Shown here: positions 32,093-49,271 of the stretch, one piece after another | Layout of the letters: the number at the start of each line of letters is the position of its first letter | Numbering within the stretch: the first letter of the stretch is position 1 | Source: Candidatus Uhrbacteria bacterium | Lineage (GTDB): Bacteria; Patescibacteriota; Patescibacteriia; UBA9934; GWF2-40-263 | DNA: 49,271 nucleotides | Assembly (NCBI GenBank): GCA_016205975.1 | Contig: JACQSK010000002.1 | Location: 1 to 49,271 of the forward strand | Direction: 5' to 3' | Translations under genes and position numbers: made by a program | The notes under the pieces: model-generated | Seen by the model: the letters and a program-made list of their open reading frames with translations, nothing else | Databases searched by the model: none | Told to the model about the DNA's origin: nothing

Positions 32093-32095
32093 CAA

Positions 32096-33012: not shown

Positions 33013-33024
33013 ATAGATGGCGTT

Positions 33025-34171: not shown

Positions 34172-34218
34172 AATTCTTTGACGTGTATGATTGTGTGACG
34201 TATTATGTCGTCGCTGTA

Positions 34219-34227
34219 AGTATAGCA
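34219..34227 (-). promoter_or_regulatory. extended -10 element TGCTATACT upstream of rmuC
   Basis: On the minus strand, TGCTATACT occupies 34227-34219. It is the same 9-mer as at 20738-20746. Confidence 0.4.
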
Positions 34228-34261
34228 TGAGAGCAGGATAAGCGTTTTACGACACAAAAAA

Positions 34262-34337
34262 GTCCCCGTAGCTCAACTGGATAGAGCTACAGCGTCCTAA
34301 GCTGGAGATGGGGGTTCAAGTCCCTCCGGGGACACCA
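34262..34337 (+). tRNA. tRNA-Arg (anticodon CCT), CCA encoded
   Basis: Acceptor GTCCCCG/CGGGGAC, D arm GCTC-AACTGGATA-GAGC, anticodon loop GTCCTAA, T arm GGGGG-TTCAAGT-CCCTC, discriminator A, then CCA. Confidence 0.9.
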
Positions 34338-34341
34338 AAGA

Positions 34342-34355
34342 GTTTCACGTGAAAC
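34342..34355. promoter_or_regulatory. perfect palindrome GTTTCACGTGAAAC (shared motif, copy 1)
   Basis: 14-bp perfect palindrome located 5 nt after tRNA-Arg(CCT) and 4 nt before the HAD gene start. GTTTCAC(G/A)TGAAACAAT recurs at 35231-35247. Confidence 0.5.
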
Positions 34356-34358
34356 AAT

Positions 34359-35027
34359 GTGAATTCAAGACCAATTCAAAATCCCGGATTCCTAATTGAC
34401 TTTGATGGTCTTCTCATTAATTCCGAGTCACTATCATTGGTTGCGTTTGAAAAGTTGTGTGGCGAGCTTGGGTGCCAGTTTACGCAGGATTACCATGCGT
34501 CCATCCGTGGCAAGAAAAAGTCTCAATGGGCAGAGGAGTTCGTAGAGAATTTTTCCCTAAGTGAATCTGCAGTGATGATTGCAGAGCTTCACACTAAGCT
34601 GCTCCTAAGTGAGATGGATGATTCTGTAGGTCTTCTTCCCGGAGCGGACGATTTACTTAATTGGATCGGCGAGAATTGTTATCCTGCGGCACTGGTTACT
34701 AGTTCGGATCGAAAGTACGCAGAGACTTATCTGAAAAAGCTAGGTATTGAGGATTCATTCCAGCAGTTGGTGACCTCAGAGGATGTCAGGCATGGGAAGC
34801 CAGACCCTGAGCCGTATGTCATCGGTGCAATGAGGATTAATAAGGAGCCACAGAATTGTATTGTTCTAGAAGATTCGGTGAATGGAGTACTCTCAGGAAA
34901 GGCAGCGGGGGCCATAGTCTTCGCAGTGCCGTCGACAGAATCTGATAGGCAGAAGCTAGTGAGTTCCGATTTCGTCGTTTTGTCTCTTGTAGAAGCACTG
35001 GGAATCCTAAGGGGAATGGGTCTGTAG
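34359..35027 (+). CDS. HAD-superfamily hydrolase, subfamily IA (beta-phosphoglucomutase-like)
   Basis: Motif I is LIDFDGLLINSE. It also has GKPDPEPY and LEDSVNGVLSGKAAG. The start is GTG. Confidence 0.85.
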   Translation: MNSRPIQNPGFLIDFDGLLINSESLSLVAFEKLCGELGCQFTQDYHASIRGKKKSQWAEEFVENFSLSESAVMIAELHTKLLLSEMDDSVGLLPGADDLLNWIGENCYPAALVTSSDRKYAETYLKKLGIEDSFQQLVTSEDVRHGKPDPEPYVIGAMRINKEPQNCIVLEDSVNGVLSGKAAGAIVFAVPSTESDRQKLVSSDFVVLSLVEALGILRGMGL

Positions 35028-35103
35028 CGGATCTCTCATTGTCGAGATCCCAAAGTCCTCCGTTCTGAATAGACCAGGAGAGGTACGGATAGTTACTTAC
35101 TAT

Positions 35104-35179
35104 GGGCCTGTAGCTCAGTTGGTAGAGCGCCGCATTCGCATTGCGGAGGTCAGGGGTTCGAATCCCCTCAGGTCCACCA
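35104..35179 (+). tRNA. tRNA-Ala (anticodon CGC), CCA encoded
   Basis: Acceptor GGGCCTG/CAGGTCC with the G3:U70 Ala identity pair, anticodon loop TTCGCAT, T arm AGGGG-TTCGAAT-CCCCT, then CCA. Confidence 0.92.
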
Positions 35180-35180
35180 A

Positions 35181-35212
35181 AAAAGCACTCAGTTAGACTG
35201 AGTGCTTTTTTT
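35181..35212 (+). terminator. intrinsic terminator after tRNA-Ala
   Basis: GCACTCAG-TTAGA-CTGAGTGC is a perfect 8-bp stem extended by A/T pairs and followed by T7. Confidence 0.85.
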
Positions 35213-35228
35213 GAAGAAATACGCAGAA

Positions 35229-35246
35229 TTGTTTCACATGAAACAA
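35229..35246. promoter_or_regulatory. palindrome TTGTTTCA-CA-TGAAACAA (shared motif, copy 2)
   Basis: 8-bp perfect arms. It shares 16 of 17 nt of GTTTCACRTGAAACAAT with the site at 34342-34358. Confidence 0.5.
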
Positions 35247-35416
35247 TCCAGGAGCTGATCCATAATTTCTCATATTTGGCTACAGCAGAGTAGACAGAAT
35301 ATGGAAATAGTGGATAACTCCATCTGTTTTTCTCTAACAGGTAAATTATCACCTGAAAACAGGTAATGTTTTAATTCTTGATCTAATTATTTTGCTTATT
35401 TTAGCTCAAAAATTGG

Positions 35417-35445
35417 TTGACTACATTTCGTATTCATGATACAAT
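35417..35445 (+). promoter_or_regulatory. near-consensus sigma70 promoter of the surface-protein locus
   Basis: TTGACT (35417-35422), a 17-nt spacer and TACAAT (35440-35445), at the end of a 200-nt AT-rich region. The track ATG (35436) lies inside the spacer, so it cannot be the start. Confidence 0.55.
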
Positions 35446-35459
35446 ATCTCCGTAAAGGT

Positions 35460-36374
35460 ATGGACAAGCATCATCTGCTCACCACCTTTGCTCTTGTGGG
35501 GATTTTTGTATACGTGAATGTTGTTTCGGCTGCCATGTCCTCATCGAGCTACCTTATCCGGTGGGATTCAGTTAACACCGGTGGTTCTGATACTGGTAGC
35601 TCGTCGAGTTACCAGTTACGGGACACACTCGAGGCAGCCGTAGCCGGGCGAACATCCAGCTCTTCCTACAACCTCGACCAAGGCTATCGAGGTGGAGTGC
35701 TCGACCAGGTTATCGCCTTTGATGTCCGCGCTCAGGACATTAGCGACCCCAGAACAGCCTCCTCGCTTGCCAGTCTTACCGTTACCGTTTCCTCCGTCTC
35801 GGGCATCTCAGCGGGGAGCTACGTCGTTCTTGTACAGGATCAGGGCGTCAGCCAGGTATCTGCCATCGGGAAGGTGGCCTCCGTAGGAAGCTCAACCATC
35901 ACGGTTGACTCCTGGACAAATGGTGGCACCGCACCAACGATTGATGGATTTGGCGACTACCTTTATATCCTGAGCGGTGCGACCGTTGCCTTTGGCCAGC
36001 TCAGCGACTCTTCTGTGAGGACAGCCGTGATTGCCTTTGAGGTATCGGCTGATAGTACAAGCGGGTACGTCATTCAAGTGAGCGATGATGGGAACCTGCG
36101 GTCGGGTTCAAATGATGTTGACGATGTGTCAGACGGCGCGGTCAACGAAGGCTCTGAAGAGTTCGGCGCGCGATCGTCCGATACGTCCTTGGCAAGTACA
36201 AGCTTCGACACAGCAGACGCAGCCCTCACGACCACCCGGCAGGATATTGTGACTCGTAGCAGCGCGAGCCTTGCTGACAGAAGTTTCGTGACGCTCAAGG
36301 CTTCCATCAGCACGTCAACAGCGGCCGGCTCCTACGCCAACACGATCAGTTTCATCGCTTCAGGAAACTTTTAA
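35460..36374 (+). CDS. secreted Ser/Thr-rich pilin-like protein (S1, 304 aa)
   Basis: Signal anchor LLTTFALVGIFVYVNVVSAA, repeated SSSY-x-L/I motifs, and a C-terminal strand AGSYANTISFIASGNF that resembles fimbrial-subunit termini. No firm family. Confidence 0.7.
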   Translation: MDKHHLLTTFALVGIFVYVNVVSAAMSSSSYLIRWDSVNTGGSDTGSSSSYQLRDTLEAAVAGRTSSSSYNLDQGYRGGVLDQVIAFDVRAQDISDPRTASSLASLTVTVSSVSGISAGSYVVLVQDQGVSQVSAIGKVASVGSSTITVDSWTNGGTAPTIDGFGDYLYILSGATVAFGQLSDSSVRTAVIAFEVSADSTSGYVIQVSDDGNLRSGSNDVDDVSDGAVNEGSEEFGARSSDTSLASTSFDTADAALTTTRQDIVTRSSASLADRSFVTLKASISTSTAAGSYANTISFIASGNF

Positions 36375-36377
36375 CCT

Positions 36378-37274
36378 ATGCGGAGCTCACGACCACTCTT
36401 CGTCCTCGTTTCAACGATGATCTTCATTCCATCGGTTGTTTCTGCTCTCGCGCTTGCGCCCTCAAGCCAGGAGCTCACCGCGAAGCGCGGAGAGACGATC
36501 ACATCGAGCATTACGGTCATCAACGCCCTTGAGACAGAACAGGAATACTACGTTGGCCTCTTAGGATTTCGACCCAAGGACGACTCAGGCGCACCGGAGT
36601 TTTACGAGCCCGATCCGACTCAGAGCGACCTGACAGATTGGATTTTGTTTGAGCAGGATCGGTTCATCGTGCCGGCTCTATCGTTTGCCGAGATTCCTTT
36701 TCGGGTCGTCGTCCCAGACGATATTTCGGCACAGGGATATTACGCCGCAATTACCCTTTCTCCTGCGCCAGCAGACGTTGTGGCAACCAACGGCGCCATC
36801 ATCGAGGCAAAAACCGCGGCGCTCGTTTTGCTCACCGTTGAAGGAGAGACGCAGGAGCGCCTCGAACTGCTCGATTTTACGAGAACAGGCGACTCCTATC
36901 AGTATCGTATTCAGAACCAAGGCAACGTCCACGCAACCCCCATAGGCACCATCCGCATCACAAGCCTGTTCGGCCAAGTGATAAGCGAGGTTGACGCCAA
37001 CCCGGAGTCAGGGCGCGTTCTGCCAGGATCCACACGAACCTTTGAAGTCCCATCAGAAGAACCAACGCGCGACGTGTTCGATGTGGTCGCGTATCAACTT
37101 AGCCACTGGGCGATGGGGCCAGCAACAACGACCTTGAGTCTCACTTACGGCGACCAAGGGAGCATCGAGTCGACCCTCACTTTCTGGCTGTTCCCCTGGG
37201 AACTCATCATCACGATCTTGGGGCTGGCAGTGATCCTGCGTTTTGGGTATCGCCTATGGCCTCGACGCCACTAA
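36378..37274 (+). CDS. secreted beta-rich protein with C-terminal TM anchor (S2, 298 aa)
   Basis: Signal peptide (VSTMIFIPSVVSALA), an Ig-like body (FRVVVPDDISAQGYYAAITL) and a C-terminal TM plus basic tail (LIITILGLAVILRFGYRLWPRRH). It starts 3 nt after S1. The architecture resembles DUF916-type proteins. Confidence 0.72.
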   Translation: MRSSRPLFVLVSTMIFIPSVVSALALAPSSQELTAKRGETITSSITVINALETEQEYYVGLLGFRPKDDSGAPEFYEPDPTQSDLTDWILFEQDRFIVPALSFAEIPFRVVVPDDISAQGYYAAITLSPAPADVVATNGAIIEAKTAALVLLTVEGETQERLELLDFTRTGDSYQYRIQNQGNVHATPIGTIRITSLFGQVISEVDANPESGRVLPGSTRTFEVPSEEPTRDVFDVVAYQLSHWAMGPATTTLSLTYGDQGSIESTLTFWLFPWELIITILGLAVILRFGYRLWPRRH

Positions 37275-37283
37275 TATTCATGT

Positions 37284-40200
37284 GTGCCTATTCTCAGGAG
37301 GTTCATTCAAACAATCGCACGAGTCACCGTGATCCTCACGGTGGTTGCTGTGGTTGTTCCAACAACCTCTGCTGCCACGCTCACAGGAGTGAATGATTAT
37401 CCTGGGACGCTCCAGGTATCCCAGGCGGCCAACCACACACTGGTCTTTACAACTCCTACCGGCGTATCGGAAGGATCTACGATCACCATTTCGTTCTCGT
37501 CTTCCTTTGATACCTCGAGCGTAACCGAAGACGATGTGGACGTGGCCGACGATGGGACGGATCTCACCACCGCGAGCTCATGCACGGGGACGGATCAGGC
37601 CTCCGTATCCGTGGCCTCCGACGTGGTGACGATCACGATCTGTGCAGGCGACGGCGGCGCCATTGCCGCAGCAAGCCAAGTCACGGTGGAAATCGGCGCG
37701 CACGCGACAGCCTCAGGGACAGGAGCCAACCACATTACCAATCCGTCCTCGACGGGAACGTATTTTGTGACCGTGGCGGGAAGTTTTGGCGACGACGGCT
37801 CGATCGCTCTGCCTGTGGGCGGTGACGACTCCATTTCCGTGAGCGCGAGTGTCCCCACGATTACGGGCGGAACCGGAACAGGCGGCGGTGGAACGTCCGC
37901 AGACACCAGCGCGCCCACGATTAGCAACATCGTGGTAGTGAGCGTGAGCGAGACGAGCGTAACGATCACTTGGCAGACCGACGAGGCTGCCACGAGCGAG
38001 GTGAGCTATGGGGAAACGAGCGCGCTTGAGCTGGGCACCGTCTCTGACGCTTCCTCCTCGACCTCGCACGCGATCACTCTCACGGGACTGACTCCTGGGG
38101 AGACGTACTATTTTTCCGTGAGCTCAAGCGACAGTAGCGGGAACGAGACGACCTCCTCTGTATCCACGTTCACTACACTTGATGAGACCGATCCCGATAT
38201 CACGGACGTTGAAGTCGTCGACATCACGACGACCACGGCGCGCGTGACATGGACCACGGACGAGGCCGCGGACAGCCGCGTCTCGTACGGCGAGTCTGTC
38301 TCCTATGACGCGTCGCAGTCCGACAGCAGCCTCACGACCGCGCACTCCCTCACACTGACCGATCTGACGCCAGGCACGACGTACCACTTCCAGGTGCTCT
38401 CGTCTGACTTCTCAGAAAACCAAGCCTTCACCGCGGACGCGACCTTCCTCACAGATGAAGACGACGCACCCGCCAACGTCTCAAACCTGTCGGTTGCCGC
38501 AGGAGACGGCGAGCTCACGCTCACCTGGAAGAATCCAGATGAAGAGGACTTGGACGGTGTCTTGATCCTGATCTGTACGGACGGCTATCCCGACGGCCCA
38601 ACGGATGAAGACTGTACCGCGCTCGACGCAGGCGTGGCGGAGGCGTATACCCTCTCAGGCCTCGTGAACGGGACCGCGTATTTCATCGGAGTTTTTGCCT
38701 ACGATGCATCAGGGCAGTTTGCTTCTGGCGCTCTTGCGACCGCACGTCCAAGCGCGTCAGAAGAAGAGGTGCCCTCACAAGGAGAGGAGATCGCAGAGCC
38801 CGGCGAAGCATCGCCGGAGCTCGGCGAAACACCTGACGGCGAAGAAGAACCTGTTTCTCCTGAAGAGACAGGCGGCGAGGCGACCACCGGTGAAGAAGAG
38901 GAACCGACCTCCTTGGGTGTGGAGGAAGGAACCTTAAGCGACACCGACGTCCGCTACTTTGTCGAAGAAGAGTCCCTCGAGCTTACGACCGACACCGGCG
39001 TGGTCGAGGTGCTCACGGGTCTCACCGTGCTCATCACGATTCCCGCCTCCGAAATCTCAGACGACGTTGCCACTGTGCAGGTGACGCTCGGCACGCAGAC
39101 GTATCTCATGACCTATGACGAAGCGTCCGCCATGTACGAAGCTGAGATTTTGATCACGGAGGGTCAGGGCGTGGCCGAGATGAGTGTCACGGTTACCTAT
39201 CGTGATGGCGCGTCGGACACGGTTTCTTCCTACGTGAACGTGCTCACTCCAGGGTACGTTTACCGTCTCATCGATGGGGAAGAAGTCGGCGTCCCTGGCG
39301 CAACGGTCACACTCTTTGAGGTGGTCGGCGGCAAGCCGGTCGTGTGGGATGGGTCCCCGTACGATCAGGACAACCCGACCACGACAGGCGCGGACGGAAC
39401 CTTTGCCTGGTATGTCCCGCTGGGGACCTACGAGGTGAGCGTGCGCGCCCAGGGTTTTGAAGCCGCACAGACTTCAAGACTCACGATCGATAACGGCATT
39501 GTGAATCCTCGCGTGCTTCTTGTTCCCATTCAAGAAGAGGAAGCCAGCGAGACCACCTCTGAGGAAGAAGGCGAGACCACCCCCTTGGCCCTCGTGCAAA
39601 ACGTTCTTTCTTCTTCTCCGGTTGTCGCCGTGCAAGAAGTCCTGGACAGGATTCGCGATCTTCCAGGCGTAGAGACAACCTCACGGATCGCTACGCCCGT
39701 TCTCGCGCTGACGGCTGGCGCGAGCATCGTCGTGCTCTCTGTGTCTTTCGACCTCCTTCCGTTCCTCCAATATTTTTTCACCGCGCCGATTCTCTTTTTC
39801 TGGCGCCGCAAGAGGAAAGGATACGGAGTCGTCTATAACGCGATCGGAAAGACCCCCATCGACTTGGCGGTCGTCCGTTTGTACGCACTCAGAAACGATG
39901 AGGAGGCGACGCCTGGCTCCGGCCGCCTCCTCCAAAGTCGCGTGACCGATAAGGGCGGACGCTTCTTCTTCCTGGTTCCCCCAGGACGCTATCGTCTGAG
40001 CGCGACCAAGGTCGGGTTCGAGTTCCCCTCCGCGTACCTCCAAGGCGAGCGCACGGATGGGACGTACCTGGACGTGTATCACGCCGAGGCGATCGAGGTG
40101 CAGACGCGTGACGTCATCATCACCGCCAACATCCCGATGGATCCCTCCCAAGCCGCGGCGTTCCATGCTCCTGCTGCGGTGGCATGGCGCGCGCGCCTGA

Positions 40201-40640
40201 GAGTCCTCCAGCACAGCGTGGCCGCCTTAGGGCTTGTGACCGCCGTCGTGTTTGCCGTCATTCGACCGACGGTCTTCTCTCTGGGCATGATCGCGATCCA
40301 GATGGCGCTCTATGTCCTTGTCCGACGGCTGGCGAAACCGTTTAAGCCCGTGAGCTGGGGCATCGTGTATGCGCGCGACACTGGACGCCCGCTCGCGCGC
40401 GCGGTGGCTCGCATCTTCGAGCCTAAGTACAACAAGCTTCTGGAAACACAGGTGACCGACAGCAAGGGACGCTATGCCTTCTTGCTGGGCCCCAACGAGT
40501 ACTTCGCCGTCTTCCAAAAAGAAGGATTTGAACAAAAAGAAATCCGACCGATCGACTACTCGGCTCAGGCTGAGCCGACGAGCTTCTCGGCGCGCGTCGC
40601 GCTTGCATCCAAAGACGAGACAGGCGCCGCGCCTCACTAA
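37284..40640 (+). CDS. 1118-aa surface protein with three FN3-like modules, CarboxypepD_reg-like domains and internal TM helices (S3)
   Basis: GTG start. FN3-like modules begin near 37902, 38181 and 38461 (VTITWQTDEAATSEVSYG..., ARVTWTTDEAADSRVSYG..., LTLTWKNP...). An acidic linker follows, then three CarboxypepD_reg-like units (GATVTLFEV...GTYEVSVRAQGFE, VTDKGGRFFFLVPPGRYRLSATKVGFE, VTDSKGRYAFLLGPNEYFAVFQKEGFE) separated by TM segments. Confidence 0.85.
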   Translation: MPILRRFIQTIARVTVILTVVAVVVPTTSAATLTGVNDYPGTLQVSQAANHTLVFTTPTGVSEGSTITISFSSSFDTSSVTEDDVDVADDGTDLTTASSCTGTDQASVSVASDVVTITICAGDGGAIAAASQVTVEIGAHATASGTGANHITNPSSTGTYFVTVAGSFGDDGSIALPVGGDDSISVSASVPTITGGTGTGGGGTSADTSAPTISNIVVVSVSETSVTITWQTDEAATSEVSYGETSALELGTVSDASSSTSHAITLTGLTPGETYYFSVSSSDSSGNETTSSVSTFTTLDETDPDITDVEVVDITTTTARVTWTTDEAADSRVSYGESVSYDASQSDSSLTTAHSLTLTDLTPGTTYHFQVLSSDFSENQAFTADATFLTDEDDAPANVSNLSVAAGDGELTLTWKNPDEEDLDGVLILICTDGYPDGPTDEDCTALDAGVAEAYTLSGLVNGTAYFIGVFAYDASGQFASGALATARPSASEEEVPSQGEEIAEPGEASPELGETPDGEEEPVSPEETGGEATTGEEEEPTSLGVEEGTLSDTDVRYFVEEESLELTTDTGVVEVLTGLTVLITIPASEISDDVATVQVTLGTQTYLMTYDEASAMYEAEILITEGQGVAEMSVTVTYRDGASDTVSSYVNVLTPGYVYRLIDGEEVGVPGATVTLFEVVGGKPVVWDGSPYDQDNPTTTGADGTFAWYVPLGTYEVSVRAQGFEAAQTSRLTIDNGIVNPRVLLVPIQEEEASETTSEEEGETTPLALVQNVLSSSPVVAVQEVLDRIRDLPGVETTSRIATPVLALTAGASIVVLSVSFDLLPFLQYFFTAPILFFWRRKRKGYGVVYNAIGKTPIDLAVVRLYALRNDEEATPGSGRLLQSRVTDKGGRFFFLVPPGRYRLSATKVGFEFPSAYLQGERTDGTYLDVYHAEAIEVQTRDVIITANIPMDPSQAAAFHAPAAVAWRARLRVLQHSVAALGLVTAVVFAVIRPTVFSLGMIAIQMALYVLVRRLAKPFKPVSWGIVYARDTGRPLARAVARIFEPKYNKLLETQVTDSKGRYAFLLGPNEYFAVFQKEGFEQKEIRPIDYSAQAEPTSFSARVALASKDETGAAPH

Positions 40641-40641
40641 T

Positions 40642-43600
40642 ATGATTGCCACACGGAGGAACCCATGGATCCTAACCCTCATGACCGCACTCATCGTGCT
40701 CATGGGTTTTGCGTCTCCCTCCGTCGCGGTCGCTCCCACCAACATCATCACCTATCAGGGCCGGCTCCTGGACGCCAACGCCGTGCCCGTGACGGATACG
40801 AGCCTCAGCATGAAGTTCTTTTTCTACACGGCGCTCACCGGCGGCACCTGCGTGTGGTCGAACTCTTCCGCCTCCTGCGACAGCAACACGCCAGCCTCTA
40901 CGACGGCGCGCAGCGTCACGCTCACCTCAGGTCTGTTCACCCAAAACTTAGGCGACACGAGTGACTCCTTTGCCGCCATCGGGGATTCCATCTTTGCCGA
41001 CAACACGACGCTCTTCCTGGAAGTGATCGTCGGCAGCGAGACGCTTAGCCCGCGCCGCCGCCTGACAGCCGCGCCCTACGCGCTCAACGCCGGCACGCTT
41101 GACGGTATCGACTCGGCGACGCTGCAATTATTTGAAACAGGTTCAAGCCGCACGTTTGAAGATGACGCGCCGGTGATTATCGGATCAAACGCGGCGTTCA
41201 CCTATGGCAGCGGCGCCGCAGGAGATTTGCGTATCGATGATGAACTGGAGGTCATGGGCGACGGGTACATTGATAATGATCTCGTGGTTGGAGCTTCCAC
41301 TTCCAGCACGGAGACGATTACCAATGTGGCCTTCTCCTTGGGAGGCGACGACTTGTTCGTGGCCGGAACCCTTGGCGTGGAGGGCACGATCTATACCGAT
41401 GGGAGTCTGGATGTCGTGGGTACGGCGAGCGTGGGCGACCTCACCTGCACGGACTGTTTGGACTTTACCGAGCTCAGCGACACGCTTGCTCTGGACGCGA
41501 GCACCTCGATCGCCATGGACGGCGCCGAGTCATTCACGATTACGAACTCGGGGACCGAGGGCATTATTTTCAACCTTGCGTCCACGGGCGACTTCACCGT
41601 TCAAGACAACGGCACGTCCGTGTTTGGCATTTCGGATACAGGCGCGATTTCCGTGGACCCAACCACCGCGGGCACCGCGCTTGACTTTGAGCTTGCCACG
41701 CAGTGGACCACTGGCGACCTCGTGAACGCCGACTGGGGCTCGGCCACGACGGCCACCGGCGCCGTGCAGGTCATCGATCTTGATCTCACCAACCTCACGG
41801 CGGACGCAAGCAATCCTGTCTACGGCATCCACGTGAACGATCCGGCTTCCGCTACGGCCTCCACCGAGCGCGGCATCTTTATCGAAGGCACCAACTGGGA
41901 CCTGGGGCTCTACGTGGTGGATGCCGTGGACTTTGACGGCGCGGCCAACATCGCCGACACGACCGCAGGCTCCGACGTGGCCATGGGCAACGCCACGGGC
42001 AACCTGACCTTCCTCTCCGACAACGCGGACTTCACGCTCACCGATGCCACCGACAACGTGTTCCAACTTTTGAACGCCACCAACGGCCGCCTGTACCTGG
42101 ACGTGGACGCGGGCGCCACAGACACCGTGGCGCTTGGCAACACCACGGACGTCTTGACTCTCGCCGGCAACGGATCTTCAACGATCGACTTCGCCGAGTT
42201 CGATGTGGCCGCGACAGGTGCCGTGACCATCGCACCCACCACCACCGGCACGATGCTCGACTTTGTTTTGGAAACGGAGTGGACCACGGGTGACCTGGTA
42301 AACGCCGACTGGGGTTCGGCCACGACGGCCACCGGCGCCGTGCAGGTCATCGATCTTGATCTCACAAACCTCACGGCCGACGCGACCAACCTTCTCTACG
42401 GCATCCACCTGAACGATCCTGCTTCCGCCACGGCCTCCACCGAGCGCGGCATTTTCATCGAAGGCACAAATTGGGATCGCGCGCTGTATGTAGAGGACGT
42501 GTCTGAGTTTCAGGAAGACCTCGTGATTGATGACGCGACCGACGGCGTGGACATCGTGATCGGCAGCGACAACGGCGTGGTAATAGACATCGGCGCCGAC
42601 GTGTACAACGGCGGAACCCTCATGGACATCGCGTTTGATACGGCTGAGGTCGTGGACTCGCCGCTCACGGCGATGAATGTCGATTTTAATACGAACCTGA
42701 CCGGGAACGCCGGTGACAACGTGACGGCCTTTGGGACGACCCTCCCGGGATTCACCGGCAACCTCCCCGACGCCCTTTCCACCACGACCCTCACGGGCTT
42801 CGCGGCAACGGGCGCGAGCATTGATACCGGAACCAATGCGGCCTCTGCCCTCACGGTAAACTGGAGAGGGCTCAGCATTGACCTGCCTTCGATTGACACC
42901 GGCAGCGCGGACGACACCGTGCGCTCAACAGGTCTGCTCATCACAGGTGGGACCGTGACCAACGGCGCGGGCACTGAGGACGAGATCGGCGTGGACCTGA
43001 GCGGGACGAAAATTGATTTGGACGCGGACAACGACACGTCGTTTATCGCGAGCACCGACGACCGTATCGATTGGGAGCTTGGCGGCACAGCCCAGACGCT
43101 CATCATGAGCGCGCCAGCCGCTGCGAGCAGTGGAACCTCAACGTCCATCCTGCAGGTGAACTATGCCACACCCGCGGACGGCTCGGGAACCAACATCCAT
43201 CAAGCCCTTGCCCTGAACGTGGACATCGGCAATGCAACCGCCGGAACCAACACCGTCAACGTGATAGAGATCATGCCTCTTGATGGCGATGCCGACGTGG
43301 CCAACGTGCACGCGATTGATATCGGATCGATCACCGGGACCTCTGCCAACAACGAGACAGCCATCCAGATCGGTCCGGGATGGGACATGGACATCGTGTT
43401 TCTGAACAGCACGCAAGCAAACTTCCGCATCGCCAACAGCTCCTCGGTCGCCTTCCAAGACGCCAGCGGGAACGAGATCCTTTCCCTGGAGGACGTTGGC
43501 AACGCCGTAAACCATGTCATCACCATCGACGGCGATACAGGGCTTGCGTTTGACAGTAGTTCAGATTCCGACACGGACATCACAACCGCCACGGATGAAG

Positions 43601-46434
43601 ACTTGCGCATCGAGCCCAATGGTGCCGGCGACACGATCATTGCCGTGGACGCGGACACGAATTTCGTTGTGGCGGCAGACGCGGCTCCCGCGATTGATAT
43701 GATCAGCATCACGGCCACGGGCGCGGCCGCCGTGACAACAACGGATGTGAACGCGATTTCTCTGGACTACAGCGTCACTGGCGTTTCCTCGGCCGGAGTG
43801 CTTCTCGACTCAACCTTCACCGGCGGCGGAACAGACCTGCTCTCGTACTCGGCGCTCCTCATAAACGACATCAATCCGACCAACACGGCAGGAACCGACA
43901 CGGTCGTGGGTATTGATATTTCCCCGATCACCGACCCAGGCGCCACGATCACTTCCTACGGAATGCAGATCGGTTCGGGCTACGATGCGAACTTGATTTT
44001 TACCGACACGACCGCGATCGTCGACGTATCCGGCGGCGGCACGATCACCTTCCGCGACGGAACCAACACACTCATGGCCATCGCGGACAACGGGACGGAC
44101 GGCATCTTGACCATCAACAACCTTTCGACTGCCGCCTCCGCCGTGAACATCTATGACGTTGCCGTCACCAAGTCGATTGACATCGGCGGCGTCACGGCAG
44201 ACGCGGCCGATACGGTCTCGATCGCGACCAACGCCTCAAGTGGCGACACGATTTTGATCGGCAACAGCGCAGGGACAACCAACGTGACGATCACGGCAGG
44301 GGGCACGATCGATCTTGAAGGTTCGGTAACCATGGACCTCACAACGATCGGCGCCACGCAGTTCGCTGTGTGCCATACAAACTCCGATACCAATGACGAG
44401 GCGATTGGCGATTGCTCGGGCGCGCCCACCGCTGACTACGCGGAGCAATACCCCGTGGCCGCAGGCATCGGCTACGGCGACATCGTGGTTCCTGGCGCGC
44501 GCGAAGTGACGACCACAGAAGGCGCCACGCTCGTCGAGCTTGTAAAGTCGAGTACCCCCTATGAGGGTCCCATCGTCGGTATCGTCTCCAACAACTACGG
44601 CGACTTCACCTCCGCCGGTTACAACATTGACGCGCGGGATAACCCCATGCCGGTCGCGCTTGTCGGACGCGTTCCCGTGAAGGTCGTGAGCGAAGGCGGC
44701 GCGATTGCGGTGGGCGATTATCTCACCACCTCTTCCACTCCAGGTATGGCCATGAAAGCCAGCAAGCTCGGCCGCGTGATCGGCATGGCGCTTGAAGATT
44801 GGGACGGCATTTCCGATACCGTCATGGTGCAAGTGAACAACAGTTGGTCCCTGGGTTCGGTGATCGGCGAGGACGGCGTTTCCACGCTTGCGACCGAGCG
44901 GGTCGTGGTTTCCTCGTTTGCCGTTGCGGACGCACAGACGCCGACCTTTGATTCCTTTGGTCTCTCGCTGCGCGGATCGGCTTGGGACGGCGCGCAGGCT
45001 CAAGCGGTTGAGATGCTGTTGCAAAATACGGTTGTGAGCGAGGATGACTATCGGCTGAGCGTGAAGAATACGAGCGAGACGGAAGTGGCCTACATCACAA
45101 ACGAGGGAACGATGAAGATCGCTGGCGATCTTGTGATCGGGGGCAAGCTCTTCCCGTCGGATCGCGGCGCAACGCAGACGGAAAAATATATTTACTACGA
45201 TGGTTCACAGGGTGCGGCAGGGGACTTCATGCGCACCAATGCAAAAGGCTGGTCCACGGGCTCGTACGATTTTGCCGAAATGTTCCCGTCTCCTGAGGCG
45301 CTCATCGCGGGTGAGGCTGTCGTCTTCTCGGGCGTAGGCCATGAAGTGGTGCGCGCAACGTGGAGTGAGGGAGAGCAGCTGGCAGGTATCGTTTCCACGC
45401 GCCCAGGATTTTTGGCTGGCGAGAATGTCGAAGGCTCTTATCCGATCGCCCTTGCCGGCCGCGTCCCTACGCGCGTGAGCACGGTAAACGGTTCCATCGC
45501 CGTGGGCGATCCTTTGGCTCCCACGGGAGTGCCGGGCGTGAGCGCCAAGGCGTCGCGCGCGGGACAGATCGTCGGGTACGCGCTGGAGACCTACGAGGGC
45601 GGGGAATCGGACGACTTGATTTTGACCTATGTGAACATCGGGTACTGGCAAGAGCCCGTGAGCGCGGCGCACAATACGGCATCGGGAGTCTCCTCCACGA
45701 CCAATTTTTCCGCGCTCAGCATGACGGGAAATATCGCCATGAACTCCTACGAGATTTCCGGCATCGGGTCGCTTACGGGAATGGGCAGTGCCTGGTCGCT
45801 TGCCTCAGACGGCACGCTCACGACTCAGGGACTCTTGAAGACCGTGATTGACTCCTATCAAAACGAACAGGTTGAAACCGTGGCCGTCACCTCACCCGAG
45901 GTCATGATTACGCTCACAGGAACCGCGGCGCTTGTTGAGGGGACGGTGGAGATTCGTTTTGAAGACGTGCTCCCAGAGTACAACGACGTCATCTCGGCCC
46001 TTGTGCCCATCCGTGTCCTCGTCACTCCCCGCGGTCCAGTCTCTCTATATGTTTCAGAGTCGGACCAGAATCACTTTGTCGTCATGCGCGCTTGGGGAGA
46101 TCAGGACGTGGAGTTCGATTGGATGGTGATGGCGTATCGCAAAGGTTACGAGCCGGTGGTAGTTCCAGGCTTTAGCCTGGGTTCGACGGATGCGTTTCCC
46201 TCCGTTCCGCTTGTCCCATCCGACCCCTCTGTCCCATCCGACCTATCCGAACCACCCGCACCCGACGCCCCTGCACCCACAGACGTTCCTGCTTCCACAG
46301 ACGTTCCTGCACTTGTAGACCTCCCAACACCCACAGACGTTCCTGCGCTTCCGGCGAGCCCGGACACAGCCCTTGTTGATCCAGCGATAAACAGTGATGG
46401 CGGCGAACCAGCCGAGCAACCACCTGCATCCTAG
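40642..46434 (+). CDS. 1930-aa secreted fibre/adhesin-like protein (S4)
   Basis: The ATG is 1 nt after the S3 stop. It has a signal peptide (LMTALIVLMGFASPSVAVA), an N-terminal ITYQGRLLD...CVWSN...LSPRRRLTAAPYALNA module of the kind seen in tail-fibre-like proteins, long T/G/D/A/N-rich repeats, two C-terminal modules of about 120 aa and a Pro-rich tail. The track start (40474) overlaps S3 out of frame. Confidence 0.85.
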   Translation: MIATRRNPWILTLMTALIVLMGFASPSVAVAPTNIITYQGRLLDANAVPVTDTSLSMKFFFYTALTGGTCVWSNSSASCDSNTPASTTARSVTLTSGLFTQNLGDTSDSFAAIGDSIFADNTTLFLEVIVGSETLSPRRRLTAAPYALNAGTLDGIDSATLQLFETGSSRTFEDDAPVIIGSNAAFTYGSGAAGDLRIDDELEVMGDGYIDNDLVVGASTSSTETITNVAFSLGGDDLFVAGTLGVEGTIYTDGSLDVVGTASVGDLTCTDCLDFTELSDTLALDASTSIAMDGAESFTITNSGTEGIIFNLASTGDFTVQDNGTSVFGISDTGAISVDPTTAGTALDFELATQWTTGDLVNADWGSATTATGAVQVIDLDLTNLTADASNPVYGIHVNDPASATASTERGIFIEGTNWDLGLYVVDAVDFDGAANIADTTAGSDVAMGNATGNLTFLSDNADFTLTDATDNVFQLLNATNGRLYLDVDAGATDTVALGNTTDVLTLAGNGSSTIDFAEFDVAATGAVTIAPTTTGTMLDFVLETEWTTGDLVNADWGSATTATGAVQVIDLDLTNLTADATNLLYGIHLNDPASATASTERGIFIEGTNWDRALYVEDVSEFQEDLVIDDATDGVDIVIGSDNGVVIDIGADVYNGGTLMDIAFDTAEVVDSPLTAMNVDFNTNLTGNAGDNVTAFGTTLPGFTGNLPDALSTTTLTGFAATGASIDTGTNAASALTVNWRGLSIDLPSIDTGSADDTVRSTGLLITGGTVTNGAGTEDEIGVDLSGTKIDLDADNDTSFIASTDDRIDWELGGTAQTLIMSAPAAASSGTSTSILQVNYATPADGSGTNIHQALALNVDIGNATAGTNTVNVIEIMPLDGDADVANVHAIDIGSITGTSANNETAIQIGPGWDMDIVFLNSTQANFRIANSSSVAFQDASGNEILSLEDVGNAVNHVITIDGDTGLAFDSSSDSDTDITTATDEDLRIEPNGAGDTIIAVDADTNFVVAADAAPAIDMISITATGAAAVTTTDVNAISLDYSVTGVSSAGVLLDSTFTGGGTDLLSYSALLINDINPTNTAGTDTVVGIDISPITDPGATITSYGMQIGSGYDANLIFTDTTAIVDVSGGGTITFRDGTNTLMAIADNGTDGILTINNLSTAASAVNIYDVAVTKSIDIGGVTADAADTVSIATNASSGDTILIGNSAGTTNVTITAGGTIDLEGSVTMDLTTIGATQFAVCHTNSDTNDEAIGDCSGAPTADYAEQYPVAAGIGYGDIVVPGAREVTTTEGATLVELVKSSTPYEGPIVGIVSNNYGDFTSAGYNIDARDNPMPVALVGRVPVKVVSEGGAIAVGDYLTTSSTPGMAMKASKLGRVIGMALEDWDGISDTVMVQVNNSWSLGSVIGEDGVSTLATERVVVSSFAVADAQTPTFDSFGLSLRGSAWDGAQAQAVEMLLQNTVVSEDDYRLSVKNTSETEVAYITNEGTMKIAGDLVIGGKLFPSDRGATQTEKYIYYDGSQGAAGDFMRTNAKGWSTGSYDFAEMFPSPEALIAGEAVVFSGVGHEVVRATWSEGEQLAGIVSTRPGFLAGENVEGSYPIALAGRVPTRVSTVNGSIAVGDPLAPTGVPGVSAKASRAGQIVGYALETYEGGESDDLILTYVNIGYWQEPVSAAHNTASGVSSTTNFSALSMTGNIAMNSYEISGIGSLTGMGSAWSLASDGTLTTQGLLKTVIDSYQNEQVETVAVTSPEVMITLTGTAALVEGTVEIRFEDVLPEYNDVISALVPIRVLVTPRGPVSLYVSESDQNHFVVMRAWGDQDVEFDWMVMAYRKGYEPVVVPGFSLGSTDAFPSVPLVPSDPSVPSDLSEPPAPDAPAPTDVPASTDVPALVDLPTPTDVPALPASPDTALVDPAINSDGGEPAEQPPAS
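41704..42476 (+). repeat. in-frame internal duplication within S4 (two copies of about 197 nt, 576 nt apart)
   Basis: 41704-41900 and 42280-42476 are roughly 90% identical by eye. They encode WTTGDLVNADWGSATTATGAVQVIDLDLTNLTADA...ASATASTERGIFIEGTNWD in both copies. The differences are mostly at third positions. Confidence 0.85.
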
Positions 46435-46614
46435 ATCAAACTACACCTATTCGTTCTTTCCGATCCTTTGGCGGGCCTTTCCGTTCTTCTTCTCAGGAGG
46501 ACAGTGCTGGCCCGAATGGAGCGCCCATGCCTGGCTCCGTTGCAGCACGCAACTGCTCAAGGGAACAACTGAAGAGGCCCACTCGGCCACACACAATTTC
46601 AGAGCGAAAAGCGC

Positions 46615-46638
46615 GCGCACCCCACACGTGCGCTTTTT
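46615..46638 (+). terminator. intrinsic terminator downstream of S4
   Basis: GCGCAC-CCCACAC-GTGCGC followed by TTTTT. A TATAAT box (46643-46648) follows immediately. Confidence 0.6.
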
Positions 46639-46657
46639 GCGTTATAATGATTCTCGT

Positions 46658-48988
46658 ATGACGTATGGACTCAGCGATCATCTGCGTGCCGCAGCCCGCG
46701 GACTCATGTATGCGCTTGTTTTTTTCCTGCCGCTCACGGTGCTGCCGCTCACCCTTGAGCCGCTTGAGATTAGCAAGCAGACGTTGCTCAGCCTTGCCAC
46801 GCTGTGCGCGGCGCTTCTGTGGCTGGCCTCCATGCTCACGGAGAAAAAAATCAGGTTCGCTCGCGGATGGGTGAGTGTGATTCCGTCTCTGTATGTGGCC
46901 GCATTTGCGATCCCCGCGCTCTCCTCTGTCGCGCCGTATCTCTCTTTTGTGGGCGCACACCGACAGGAGTATACAAGCGTTCTTACCGCCGTCTCCGTGG
47001 GCGTGCTCATCATCCTTATCTCCCAGACGTTTCGTGAGCGCAAGAGCCACAAGCTCATGCACGCCACGCTCCTGCTTTCGACCGCCGTGGCGATCGCCCT
47101 CGCACTCCTTGCGCTGTTTGGCATTTCCATTTTCGGATCAGCGACGAGCTCCTTCTCGTTCAATAGCGTTGGCACGCTCACGAGCTTCGCTACATTTTTG
47201 ATCGTCATGACCTCCTTCTTCCTCGCCTCGTTCCTCTGCCACCACCCGGGTGATTCGATGCTGCATGAAGGCGCCTGGGGGCGGGCGCAGCGTGGTGTGA
47301 TTTTCTTGGTCGCCCTGTGCACGTTTTTCTTTCTCCTACTCTTGGATCAAGATGTCCTGTGGCTCTTGTTCATCCTCTCCCTCTTGAGTCTGTTCGTGTT
47401 CGTCTTCTTCCGCGCGCAGGACTTTCCTCACCGCGCGCGGCTCCTCATCCCTCTCATCCTGATCCTGGCCGCTCTCCCGTTTTGGTTTTGGCTGCGAGGA
47501 CTGAACCTCCCTCAGGTGCCCCTTGAGGTCACGCTCAACACTGACTCCTCGCTGACGATTGCACAGAAAACGCTCCAGGCCTACTCAAGCACCGTTGGCT
47601 CAGGTCCCGGAACCTACCTCTATGACTTCTCCCGGTTCCGTGATGTGCGTCTCAACGAAACGGATTTTTGGGACACGCGTTTTGATCGTGCCTCCAGCCA
47701 CGCGCTTACGCTCGTGCCCACCATCGGCGTGCTGGGGATTACGCTTCTTTCTCTGTTCGTCCTCTTCTTACTCGTGGGCGCGATCCAGCAAGCGCTCCGT
47801 CCGCGCTCGCGCGCGCAGTGGCTGGAGAGTTTTGTGCATGTGACCCCGTGGCTCGTCCTGGTCATGAGCGCGCTGCTCATTCCTTGGAACATGACCCTCA
47901 CGGCTCTCTTCGCCATTTTTTCCGGCCTGCTCGCCTCCCAGCTCACATCTCGGGAGACGAGCCGTTCGTTTGACCGTTCTCCCGCTTCTGCTCTCTTGTG
48001 CTCCTTCCTTTTTTTGTGCGCGGCGTTTGTTCTGCTCGTGGGCGTGTTTATGACCACACAGCGTTACGCCGCAGAGGTTGCTTTCACCCAAGCCGTTGAA
48101 ACCGACCGGGCCGACGGCAGCCTTCAGGATGTCGTCGCTCTCCTTGATCGCGCTGTCATGCTGAACCGTTTCCACGATACCTACTCCCGCAACCTTTCCG
48201 AGGCACTCTTGCTGCGCGTACAAGAAGAGCTCACGCGCGCCGGTTCCGTGCAAGGCCTGAGTCCCGAGGGCGCGCAGTATGTCCAGGCGCTCGTGGCCGC
48301 GAGCGTTAACGCCGCCACGCAAGCGACGACGCTCAGCCCCAACAACGTCTTGAACTGGCTCACGCGCGGGAGCGTGTACCGCGAACTCATCCCCCTCATG
48401 GGTGAAGCCTCCGAGTTTGCGGTTGCAAGCTACGCGCGCGCGACGGAACTTGAGAGCGTGAACCCGTCCAATTGGACTCAGCTGGGAAAGACATATCTCA
48501 CAACAGCGCAGGCGGCGCAGGAACAGGAGTCGCGCGCAGCTCTTTTGGAGCAGGCGCAAGCGGCTCTCGCGCGCGCCATCGAACTCAAACCCAACTACGC
48601 GCCCGCGCATTTTGAGCTCGCGCTTACGTACGCGGCCGCCGGCCGGCTCGATGACGCGATTGCAAAAATGGAATCCGTGGCGCTCTACAACCCGCTGGAC
48701 GTGGGCGTCGCCTTCCAGCTGGGCGCCTTGTATGTTCAGCGCGGCGGTGAGGGAGATAGAGCTAAGGCGCAGGCCGCATTTGAACGTGCTATCGAGCTCT
48801 CGCCCGAGTACAGTAATGCGCACTGGTTCCTCGCCTCGATCTACGAGGGCGAAGGCGACTTGGCAGCAGCCGTGCGCGAAGTGGAGACGGTCCTGCGATT
48901 GAATCCAGGAAACGTTTTGGTGGAAGCCAGACTCGAGAAACTCCTCGCGGGACAGGTGAGCCAGGAGATGCCGGTGACTATTGAATGA
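46658..48988 (+). CDS. O-antigen-ligase-family (Wzy_C-like) polytopic membrane protein with C-terminal TPR repeats (S5, 776 aa)
   Basis: ATG 46658 lies 10 nt after the TATAAT box. It has more than 10 TM helices and a loop reading VGSGPGTYLYDF...ASSHALTLVPTIGVLG, like the GxGxG...H-x2-L motif of Wzy_C proteins. The C-terminus has TPR units (AIELKPNYAPAHFELALTYAAAGRLDDAI and AIELSPEYSNAHWFLASIYEGEGDLAAA). Confidence 0.75.
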   Translation: MTYGLSDHLRAAARGLMYALVFFLPLTVLPLTLEPLEISKQTLLSLATLCAALLWLASMLTEKKIRFARGWVSVIPSLYVAAFAIPALSSVAPYLSFVGAHRQEYTSVLTAVSVGVLIILISQTFRERKSHKLMHATLLLSTAVAIALALLALFGISIFGSATSSFSFNSVGTLTSFATFLIVMTSFFLASFLCHHPGDSMLHEGAWGRAQRGVIFLVALCTFFFLLLLDQDVLWLLFILSLLSLFVFVFFRAQDFPHRARLLIPLILILAALPFWFWLRGLNLPQVPLEVTLNTDSSLTIAQKTLQAYSSTVGSGPGTYLYDFSRFRDVRLNETDFWDTRFDRASSHALTLVPTIGVLGITLLSLFVLFLLVGAIQQALRPRSRAQWLESFVHVTPWLVLVMSALLIPWNMTLTALFAIFSGLLASQLTSRETSRSFDRSPASALLCSFLFLCAAFVLLVGVFMTTQRYAAEVAFTQAVETDRADGSLQDVVALLDRAVMLNRFHDTYSRNLSEALLLRVQEELTRAGSVQGLSPEGAQYVQALVAASVNAATQATTLSPNNVLNWLTRGSVYRELIPLMGEASEFAVASYARATELESVNPSNWTQLGKTYLTTAQAAQEQESRAALLEQAQAALARAIELKPNYAPAHFELALTYAAAGRLDDAIAKMESVALYNPLDVGVAFQLGALYVQRGGEGDRAKAQAAFERAIELSPEYSNAHWFLASIYEGEGDLAAAVREVETVLRLNPGNVLVEARLEKLLAGQVSQEMPVTIE

Positions 48989-48994
48989 TTTTTT

Positions 48995-49025
48995 AACCGC
49001 CCTTCGGTTTCCTCTGGGCGGTTTT
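48995..49025 (+). terminator. intrinsic terminator after S5
   Basis: AACCGCCC-13 nt-GGGCGGTT followed by TTTAT. Confidence 0.55.
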
Positions 49026-49044
49026 ATGATAGAGTTACTGCGTT

Positions 49045-49271
49045 ATGCCACTCTCTCTCGAAAACCCATTCACCCCAGAACCCAAGACTCCCCGCAGTCG
49101 TGACGACGCCGAGATGGTCGGGAAGATTTGTGGTCCTGAAGCGGAAGCAGCCATGAGATCGCTGGGAGACAAGCCTCCCAGGTCCACTCCAGAGACTCCT
49201 CGCCTCATCCTCACCCCTGAGGAGCGGGCTCTAGCTGAAGCGGCCGAGCGTGCCCTGCACGAGAAGAAAGA
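49045..49271 (+). CDS. hypothetical protein, N-terminal fragment (runs off the right edge)
   Basis: ATG 49045 is open to the end of the window (75 codons): MPLSLENPFTPEPKTPRSRDD... The product is low-complexity and Pro/Glu-rich. There is no SD, so support is weak. Confidence 0.35.
   Translation, partial: MPLSLENPFTPEPKTPRSRDDAEMVGKICGPEAEAAMRSLGDKPPRSTPETPRLILTPEERALAEAAERALHEKK

Follow-up and report, generated by a model that had tools for sequence, protein, structure and literature searches.

A five-gene surface-fiber locus of an Uhrbacteria genome resembles the usher-less Pam pilus of other CPR bacteria

Introduction

How is a cell-surface fiber put together when its genes come with no recognizable assembly machinery? 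The question is raised by a five-gene locus in a 49,271-nucleotide (nt) stretch of DNA, hereafter the window, from a Candidatus Uhrbacteria bacterium (contig JACQSK010000002.1 of assembly GCA_016205975.1). In the NCBI taxonomy, Uhrbacteria belong to the Parcubacteria group of Patescibacteria. The locus occupies positions 35417-48988, and its genes, S1 to S5, all lie on the plus strand. A first-pass annotation of this DNA had recognized a subunit, an anchor, and a fiber among their products and had concluded that their assembly is not explained by any system that could be named. Our analysis leads to a different answer, as the parts of the locus match those of the Pam pilus and S1 hits the NCBIfam models of Pam proteins. 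The Pam system has been known only since 2026, which explains why the earlier annotation could not name it.

The Candidate Phyla Radiation (CPR), or Patescibacteria, holds a large share of bacterial diversity, and its members live attached to hosts by structures that are barely known. CPR cells are monoderm, and the source of the window was an ultrasmall and probably host-attached cell of this kind. Against this background, we hold it to be probable that these genes specify a filament of the Pam type on a monoderm CPR cell, dependent on Sec for export and assembled without an usher through chaperone-assisted beta-strand complementation. It would most likely be a divergent variant of the Pam system, and its assembly would then not be unexplained but follow a system described in 2026.

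The Pam pilus was defined in one species of Saccharimonadia (bioRxiv 10.64898/2026.03.03.709456). In Candidatus Mycosynbacter amalyticus it comprises the pilins PamA, PamB, PamE, and PamT, the chaperones PamC and PamD, and the anchor PamR, and filaments of PamA and PamB have been solved by cryo-electron microscopy (cryo-EM; bioRxiv 10.64898/2026.03.03.709456). A Pam pilin consists of an N-terminal domain (NTD), a linker strand that is donated, and a C-terminal domain (CTD) with a truncated immunoglobulin (Ig) fold; the preprint proposes that PamC and PamD are membrane-anchored PapD-like chaperones, that PamT forms the tip, and that PamR is a fibronectin type III (FnIII) anchor, with no usher involved (bioRxiv 10.64898/2026.03.03.709456). 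Two NCBIfam models, NF058579 and NF058581, derive from the same work (bioRxiv 10.64898/2026.03.03.709456).

Results

S1, a remote relative of the Pam pilins

S1 (35460-36374) encodes 304 amino acids (aa). A signal peptide (aa 1-24) is followed by an N-terminal extension with three SSxxYxL repeats (aa 25-81, positions 35532-35702), a small beta-barrel of six strands (aa 82-156), a conserved linker strand with the motif DYLYILS (aa 157-173), and a CTD that ends in GNF (aa 174-304, positions 35979-36371) and is the putative acceptor domain of the pilin. That the protein is secreted and rich in serine and threonine, as had been noted from the sequence, is borne out by a Ser+Thr content of 28% and by a single hydrophobic segment, which is N-terminal; there are no cysteines. 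The earlier suggestion of a C-terminus like that of fimbrial subunits also pointed in the right direction, as did the proposal to consider donor-strand complementation. Neither Pfam nor PHROGs contains a match to S1, and two Pam models of NCBIfam divide the protein between them: CPR_pilus_PamT (NF058579) matches residues 5-145 over profile positions 5-146 (E 7.6e-13, 48.4 bits), and CPR_Pam_pilin_C (NF058581) matches residues 172-304 over profile positions 2-148, which is full-length (E 2.4e-12, 47.2 bits). In the aligned S1 family, the first model is matched by all 35 members and the second by 30 of the 35.

The curated cut-offs of these models are 240 bits for CPR_pilus_PamT and 55 bits for CPR_Pam_pilin_C. 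S1 fails the equivalog threshold for PamT (48.4 vs 240 bits), as do all 19 related pilins that were scanned, namely 10 distant proteins from the representative library and nine metagenomic PamT-like pilins, and no protein among these 19 passes the curated Pam cut-offs. The link to Pam therefore rests on homology that is sub-threshold but significant. Judged by these scores, S1 is not an orthologue of PamT, and its homologies place it as a pilin of the Pam superfamily.

The AlphaFold2 (AF2) model of S1 contains a confident small beta-barrel (aa 85-150), a strand at aa 167-172, within the conserved stretch aa 164-172, and a C-terminal beta-sandwich. The N-terminal extension is unplaced in the monomer (predicted local distance difference test, pLDDT, 30-42) yet is among the most conserved segments of the protein, with 18 of its 57 columns at least 90% conserved, which makes it a candidate intermolecular strand module. 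An extension of this type is also found on P0355, a protein related to S3. In Foldseek comparisons, the CTD is weakly similar to CsuA/B (7zl4; probability 0.98, TM 0.53) and also to FimA and the pilin domain of PapG. A profile of S1 searched against PDB sequences gave no match up to E 1, and the matches up to E 10 were noise, with no Pam or WxL chain among them.

HMMER searches of 1.84 billion representative sequences gave 1148 relatives of S1, the best 150 of which were sorted by architecture. The arrangement of S1 itself, with extension, barrel, and CTD (~300 aa), accounts for 57 of these 150, and a PamT-like arrangement of extension and CTD (~215-240 aa) for 60. Further classes carry a different N-domain before the CTD (of variable size; e.g. 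P0367) or the extension on a large unrelated body (P0355 and P0361). Two features are shared widely: the C-terminal end [GA]-N-[FY], exact in 119/120 S1 homologues and 110/127 representatives, is reminiscent of the way chaperone-usher pilins are anchored through their C-terminal carboxylate, and the mature N-terminus A/E-M-S-S is nearly invariant in the pilin family of S1. True pilins with NTD and CTD occur in related loci (P0367, L060, and L072).

S2, a probable membrane-anchored chaperone

S2 (36378-37274, 298 aa) follows directly. Its AF2 model (pLDDT 89.7) starts with a signal helix, continues with two Ig-like domains of beta-sandwich fold, and ends in a transmembrane (TM) helix at the C-terminus (aa 274-297, positions 37197-37268; a TM scan places the hydrophobic segment at aa 269-287), in agreement with the signal peptide, Ig-like body, and membrane anchor described before. 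The resemblance to DUF916 proteins of WxL loci, and more loosely to PapD, that had been suspected from the sequence is what the searches return. The top Foldseek match in the PDB is the Enterococcus faecium WxLIP (9i1y/9i25, E 6.5e-14), followed by the chaperones CfaA, CsuC, EcpB, CupB2, SafB, DraB, Caf1M, and FimC (E 1e-11 to 1e-7), and a profile of S2 against PDB sequences has EfmWxLIP1 as its only significant match (E 2e-4). S2 itself has no match in Pfam, NCBIfam, or PHROGs, and 19/38 of its relatives weakly match Pfam WxLIP_PGBD/DUF916 (PF06030; best E 0.0016), all below threshold. The first-pass annotation had considered that S1 or S2 might prove to belong to unrelated, well-characterized families; both do match characterized families, but these are related ones.

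WxLIPs of Firmicutes combine DUF916, DUF3324, and a TM helix (PDB 9i1y, 9i25; PMC10599100). They are predicted to insert a strand into the WxL client. In the literature library searched, we found no paper that links WxLIP to donor-strand or chaperone-usher systems, and neither WxL nor DUF916 is mentioned in the Pam preprint (bioRxiv 10.64898/2026.03.03.709456). On the strength of its model, S2 is predicted to be a PapD/FimC-like chaperone with a C-terminal TM helix, which is the architecture of PamC and PamD, and it is most likely the "missing" assembly machine of the locus.

Two better-known kinds of locus invite comparison here. Like chaperone-usher pili, especially the archaic and alternate Csu and CFA/I systems (CsuC, CfaA, Caf1M, PapD, FimC), the locus has a chaperone with a two-domain fold and a subunit with a weakly similar pilin-like CTD, and the logic that it suggests would be the same, with capping by a chaperone, donor-strand exchange, and a terminator subunit. 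The differences are that outer membrane and usher are both absent, that S2 would be tethered to the membrane rather than soluble, that no homology was detected at the sequence level, and that the S1 pilin has extra domains. The WxL loci share with the present one a monoderm host, the signal-Ig-Ig-TM layout of S2, a client binding domain at the extreme C-terminus, and, in the related locus L053, a small and a large client. They differ in that similarity of S1 to WxL domains could not be detected and Trp-x-Leu motifs were not identified (Pfam has no WxL match for S1, S3, or S4 either), in that WxL proteins are regarded as peptidoglycan-bound and not filamentous, and in the length of the chaperone (298 aa vs 337-365 aa for WxLIP), with the Pfam WxLIP_PGBD matches of the S2 family remaining sub-threshold.

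These parallels bear on a different explanation of the locus, in which no filament is formed. S2 would then be a permanent scaffold of a WxL-type display complex, or the S3 strand would hold a single S1 cap or adhesin non-covalently on a membrane-anchored stalk. WxLIP is after all the best match of S2 in both sequence and structure, and the parts list of WxL loci is the same, with small and large proteins that share a C-terminal domain next to a signal-Ig-Ig-TM protein; L053 offers a parallel, in that one of its proteins, at least 1274 aa long, ends in the pilin CTD. There is also only one pilin gene in the window, and the N-terminal half of S1 matches PamT, which has been modelled as an acceptor-only tip subunit. 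Nevertheless, the CTD of S1 shares homology with domains of Pam pilins whose filaments have been seen by cryo-EM, S1 retains both the strand before the CTD that is common to all pilin classes and the conserved N-terminal extension, and even at E <= 10 a search with its profile brings up no WxL chain among PDB sequences. Moreover, S1 stands first behind a near-consensus promoter, as is usual for genes of major pilins. We therefore regard a non-polymerizing display complex as unlikely, although it is the rival to which we give the most weight.

S3, a putative terminator and anchor

The third gene, S3 (37284-40640), starts with GTG and encodes 1118 aa. The public gene call is 1103 aa long and starts at 37329, 15 codons 3' of the GTG at 37284; the longer form seems more likely, since the shorter start would delete the positively charged n-region of the signal peptide. 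After the signal peptide comes a domain like the NTD of pilins (aa 30-180), a strand SISVSASV that is conserved in homologues (aa 183-190, positions 37830-37853), a poly-Gly run proposed to be a hinge (aa 195-203), and three FN3 modules matched by Pfam fn3 (aa 210-487). An acidic spacer and Ig/transthyretin-like domains lie between these modules and the TM region, where about four TM helices are interleaved with CarboxypepD_reg-like domains (aa ~800-1013); CarboxypepD_reg matches are on record for S3 and its orthologues. The three fn3 matches and the TM segments uphold the previous description of an FN3/CarboxypepD_reg protein that re-enters the membrane, and in PHROGs there is only a weak, fn3-type tail match.

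The N-terminal part of S3 connects it to the pilins. Its N-domain and strand align to the NTD and linker of P0367 (27% identity, E 3e-10), a two-domain pilin of 373 aa whose C-terminus is a Pam-type pilin domain. This N-domain is kept in 120/120 of the best S3 homologues, and the junction GGDDS[IL]xV[ST]A[ST]V plus Gly-run is conserved in 16/16 sampled homologues in which a Gly run was found. The pilin CTD, the acceptor domain, was not found in S3 by searches with hidden Markov models (HMMs). Lacking an acceptor, S3 would be able to give a strand to a neighbor but not to receive one. Terminators such as PapH, and PamR as proposed, follow this logic, and S3 fits, by analogy with PamR, the role of a terminator and anchor.

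Two variants of S3 were seen in other loci. P0355 is an S3 orthologue (37% identity over 812 aa) in which an S1-type N-terminal extension replaces the N-domain, and this swap suggests that the two N-terminal modules may be interchangeable plug-in elements. P0361 has the same architecture as P0355. In L064 (8659-12654), one open reading frame (ORF) of 1332 aa consists of an S2-like chaperone, including its TM helix, and an S3-like module of poly-Gly, FN3, and membrane regions, the join between the two forming a second hydrophobic segment. This may be a "Rosetta-stone" fusion; otherwise a stop codon has been lost through a sequencing error.

S4 and S5, a giant fiber and a TPR membrane protein

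S4 (40642-46434) encodes a secreted fiber of 1930 aa, the length given before. It has no Pfam, PHROG, or PDB match (the PDB search gave noise), and its N-terminus weakly resembles NCBIfam Bdello_MAT_N (E 0.003, 17 bits vs a cut-off of 60). Within Uhrbacteria, the first ~300 aa and the last ~700 aa are conserved, and the center (aa ~300-1200) is hypervariable and a candidate determinant of host range. Two internal duplications are present, one of aa ~318-453 and ~505-645 (65% identity) and one of aa ~1265-1400 and ~1543-1665 (33% identity), and the C-terminal tail is Pro-rich and lacks a sorting signal. Being very long, with a conserved N-terminus and a variable region, S4 resembles the mosaic adhesive trimer (MAT) fibers of Bdellovibrio (PMC10769870). 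It departs from MAT and phage tail fibers in that its Bdello_MAT_N match is far under the cut-off, no PHROG or PDB match exists, and the variable part is central, not C-terminal. We set aside an origin from a prophage or tail fiber, as there is no PHROG match and there are no phage genes nearby. The Pam preprint reports a "tail-fibre-like protein" as the central node of pam neighborhoods (bioRxiv 10.64898/2026.03.03.709456), and S4 is plausibly a candidate for this protein.

S5, whose start is here corrected to the ATG at 46658 (46658-48988, 776 aa), has 11-12 hydrophobic segments (aa 1-465) followed by C-terminal tetratricopeptide repeats (TPR; aa ~590-775). The first-pass annotation had called it a Wzy_C-like polytopic protein with TPR repeats; polytopic topology and repeats are confirmed, but the Wzy_C assignment fails, with no match to PF04932 at E <= 10 in the membrane part of S5 or in two orthologue fragments. 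Wzy_C is also missing from the precomputed Pfam records of the S5 orthologues in L050 and L054. S5 and its orthologues match TPR families only, and the PHROGs and PDB searches likewise give TPR proteins only. PamA carries a modified serine (bioRxiv 10.64898/2026.03.03.709456). A role of S5 in glycosylation would fit this residue and the Ser/Thr-rich S1, but it is supported by nothing here. An antisense ORF of 351 aa inside S5 (47768-48823, minus strand) is probably a GC-driven artefact.

Linkage of the five genes across lineages

All named homologues of S1, S2, and S3 belong to Candidatus Uhrbacteria, Patescibacteria, or the Parcubacteria group. In a scan of one genome per GTDB species, we found 48 loci of the Uhrbacteria type, and S1-S2-S3-S4(-S5) is collinear in all 48, so that the check for orthologues in the same order in related genomes, suggested in the first-pass annotation, finds them syntenic and not scattered. 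That the five genes are genuine is shown by their conserved order and by the homologues of S1, S2, and S3, which number in the hundreds for each. However, the flank PolA-holA-RmuC-HAD is likewise syntenic within Uhrbacteria, which makes synteny in this clade alone weak evidence of functional linkage. Linkage was therefore checked in 60 divergent metagenomic loci, fetched by motif from divergent PamT-like pilins that are 31-55% identical to the reference. An S2-like gene is present in 49 of the 60 (E 1e-13 to 1e-76), and 40 of the 47 loci with sufficient room have it directly 3' of the pilin gene. In 20/28 it is followed by an S3-like gene, and S4-like genes, found in 6/10 long loci, come after S3-like genes in these other lineages too. 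S5-like genes stand immediately 5' of the pilin gene in six loci (L070, L074, L087, L088, L091, and L107). Several metagenomic loci have two pilins, one PamT-like and one of the NTD-CTD type, and are thus nearer to the published operon. The five gene families travel together despite such rearrangements, which argues for one functional module.

This result has to be set against the possibility that two independent systems are merely neighbors, adjacent only through the collinearity of Uhrbacteria genomes. S1 and S2 would form a pilus or display pair, and S3, S4, and S5 a separate fiber apparatus with a membrane base, a trimeric tail-fiber-like adhesin, and an accessory TPR membrane protein. The syntenic flank is compatible with such an arrangement, as are the position of S5 after a terminator and with its own promoter, the lack of a pilin domain in S4, and the weak likeness of the S4 N-terminus to the N-termini of Bdellovibrio MAT fibers. 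Locus L054 points the same way: at 1641-12144 it holds the S3 orthologue P0355 (933 aa), then genes resembling S4 (1686 aa) and S5 (770 aa), and the 1.6 kb of contig 5' of the S3 orthologue contain neither S1 nor S2. Yet that same orthologue carries the pilin N-terminal extension, S3 itself has a pilin-type N-domain and linker strand, and chaperone and S3 are fused in one locus. The order of pilin, chaperone, S3-like, and S4-like genes also recurs across many lineages at a pilin identity of 31-55%, S5 moves in position yet stays adjacent, and gaps of 1 and 9 nt indicate one operon. Two separate systems are thus, in our judgment, improbable.

Three further observations were made on these loci. 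L053 (14-10346), from another CPR lineage, begins with the protein of at least 1274 aa that ends in a Pam-type pilin CTD, a candidate tip adhesin; it is followed by P0367, an S2-like chaperone, an NTD-only protein, two cohesin-like proteins, and a MazE-like gene, and MazE adjoins the pam operon in the Pam preprint (bioRxiv 10.64898/2026.03.03.709456). The sole match of the genome scan outside Uhrbacteria, L049 (Microgenomates, 28% identity), was rejected; its neighbors are glycogen synthase and glycosyltransferases, and there is no pilin. Lastly, several metagenome-assembled genomes (MAGs) from GTDB that bear the locus are titled "uncultured Gammaproteobacteria" (TPA_asm; L002, L012, L019, L020, L022, L024-L027, L031, L033, L041, L047, and L048). 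They have the Uhrbacteria-type locus and, where the contig reaches upstream, PolA-holA-RmuC as well, and these titles look wrong.

Transcription signals and the surrounding window

The layout of the locus is much as first described. S1 to S4 are separated by gaps of 3, 9, and 1 nt, as the ORF coordinates confirm, and stand behind a sigma-70-type promoter (TTGACT-17-TACAAT with an extended -10 TG, 35417-35445, plus strand) that agrees with the consensus at 10 of 12 positions and scores highest among such sites in 35000-49271, an interval that is not enriched in promoter-like sites overall (6 vs 3.6 +/- 2.3 in shuffles). The promoter sits in an AT-rich spacer 3' of tRNA-Ala. At the end of the S1-S4 operon, a sequence scan locates an intrinsic-terminator-like hairpin with a T-run (46615-46633, plus strand), and a TATAAT -10 box (46642-46647, plus strand) precedes S5, both as had been reported. 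The locus makes up 27.5% of the window, where about 27% had been estimated.

The reported absence of sortase, type IV pilus, usher, and secretin components is likewise reproduced. There is no LPXTG-like motif in S1-S5; Pfam and NCBIfam scans of the five proteins find no usher, secretin, sortase, or pilus ATPase; and 20 other window ORFs scanned with Pfam yield no match to sortase, type IV pilus, usher, or secretin families, so that both hallmarks of sortase-assembled pili are lacking as well. HMM searches of all window ORFs found no further pilin or chaperone paralogues, which leaves a single pilin gene. The other ORFs with Pfam matches are housekeeping genes, e.g. H+-PPase, RNase HII, PNPase, PolA, holA, and RmuC, and 7 of the 20 have no Pfam match at all. 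A categorically new assembly pathway, as the first-pass annotation had it, which would need machinery encoded elsewhere, might draw on these seven ORFs and on the fact that S4 and the membrane domain of S5 match no family, but S1, S2, and S3 are explained by homology or fold similarity to parts of a described, self-sufficient system, and we consider such a pathway very improbable.

Around the locus, GC content dips to 0.477 at 32000-36000, compared with 0.57-0.62 elsewhere. This low-GC stretch holds RmuC (minus strand), tRNA-Arg(CCT) at 34262-34337, a HAD hydrolase gene at 34359-35027, then tRNA-Ala(CGC) at 35104-35179, which has its own hairpin and T-run, and the promoter spacer. Farther away are a membrane H+-pyrophosphatase (3371-5359, minus strand), an XerC/D-type tyrosine recombinase (20645-21700, plus strand), and ORFs of 240-430 aa without a family match (991-1830, 9788-10702, 14054-15343, 21732-22631, and 24898-25893).

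Discussion

The system that these genes resemble most is the Pam pilus. Both belong to CPR hosts and have neither usher nor ATPase, and the components of the present system, like those of Pam, are predicted to be exported by Sec. The S1 CTD would be a truncated-Ig domain, its similarity to Pam_pilin_C being significant but sub-threshold, and the N-terminal region of S1 is homologous to PamT; S2 is PapD-like with a C-terminal TM helix; S3, compared with PamR by description, is a membrane protein with FnIII modules and an N-terminal strand module; and a "tail-fibre-like" gene is in the neighborhood. There are also clear differences. The lineage is Uhrbacteria, of the Parcubacteria group, and not Saccharimonadia or Microgenomatia, and one pilin and one chaperone are found here as opposed to four or five pilins and two chaperones. 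The S3 anchor, at 1118 aa, is polytopic and contains CarboxypepD_reg-like domains, genes for ATP synthase, CorB, and MazE are absent from this window, and a TPR membrane protein of 776 aa is linked to the locus. Beyond what the Pam preprint describes are the conserved partners S3, S4, and S5 and the link to WxLIP.

What the analysis shows are the genes and how they are conserved, their folds, and their distant homologies. From these we infer how a Pam-type filament could be assembled. All five products would be exported or inserted via Sec, as their N-terminal hydrophobic segments suggest. S2 would be held in the membrane by its C-terminal helix, and, given its fold and context, its Ig-like domains may cap the incomplete Ig domain at the C-terminus of S1, much as PapD-class chaperones do for their subunits and the Enterococcus WxLIP for its own partners. 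A strand of the next subunit would then displace that of S2, yielding a non-covalent S1 polymer that grows from its base. By homology with PamA and PamB, the donor strand could be the S1 linker strand, the N-terminal extension, or both. S3, with a pilin-type N-domain and strand and no acceptor domain, may insert last and stop growth, the role proposed for PamR, and would tie the filament to the membrane through its Gly hinge, three FN3 modules, and four-helix anchor. S4 would be a co-expressed long fiber whose hypervariable center probably contacts the host cell, and S5 a conserved accessory membrane and TPR protein.

Several points weigh against this interpretation. Both NCBIfam matches of S1 are under the curated cut-offs, making S1 a remote relative of the characterized Pam pilins, and it differs from PamA and PamB in having a barrel of ~75 aa instead of a nine-strand sandwich as NTD, an extra tri-repeat N-terminal extension, and no cysteines. 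As its N-terminal half matches PamT, modelled as a non-donating tip, S1 might not polymerize. The nearest relative of S2, WxLIP, is regarded as a stable scaffold rather than a catalytic chaperone, and S3 is about four times the size of PamR as well as polytopic. S4 has no pilin domain in HMM searches and no known way of joining the filament. To these come the syntenic flank within Uhrbacteria and the contig of L054 that shows no pilin or chaperone gene upstream of its S3 orthologue. We nevertheless favor the Pam-type filament over the display complex and the pair of independent systems discussed above.

A bolder extension of this reading can be put forward only tentatively. The five genes could be the core of an attachment organelle shared across CPR bacteria and wider in scope than the Pam operon as published; in it, S3 and S4 would link the pilus to a host-recognition fiber. 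The chaperone would then be a true homologue of WxLIP, and the WxL display loci of Firmicutes and the Pam pili of CPR bacteria would share an ancient, usher-less ancestor based on strand complementation in monoderm cells. We think it possible, but doubtful, that all of this holds.

What the locus adds to the biology of these bacteria can be stated in three parts. In Uhrbacteria, a lineage that the text of the Pam preprint does not name (bioRxiv 10.64898/2026.03.03.709456), a related but simplified system with a single pilin and a single chaperone has become fixed. The S3-type, pilin-headed anchor, the giant hypervariable fiber, and the TPR membrane protein travel with the pilin-chaperone pair in many lineages and are candidates for unrecognized core components. 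Finally, with the Enterococcus WxLIP as the nearest relative of S2, the chaperone offers a testable evolutionary bridge between the pili of CPR bacteria, the WxL loci of Gram-positives, and the chaperone-usher pili of Gram-negatives.

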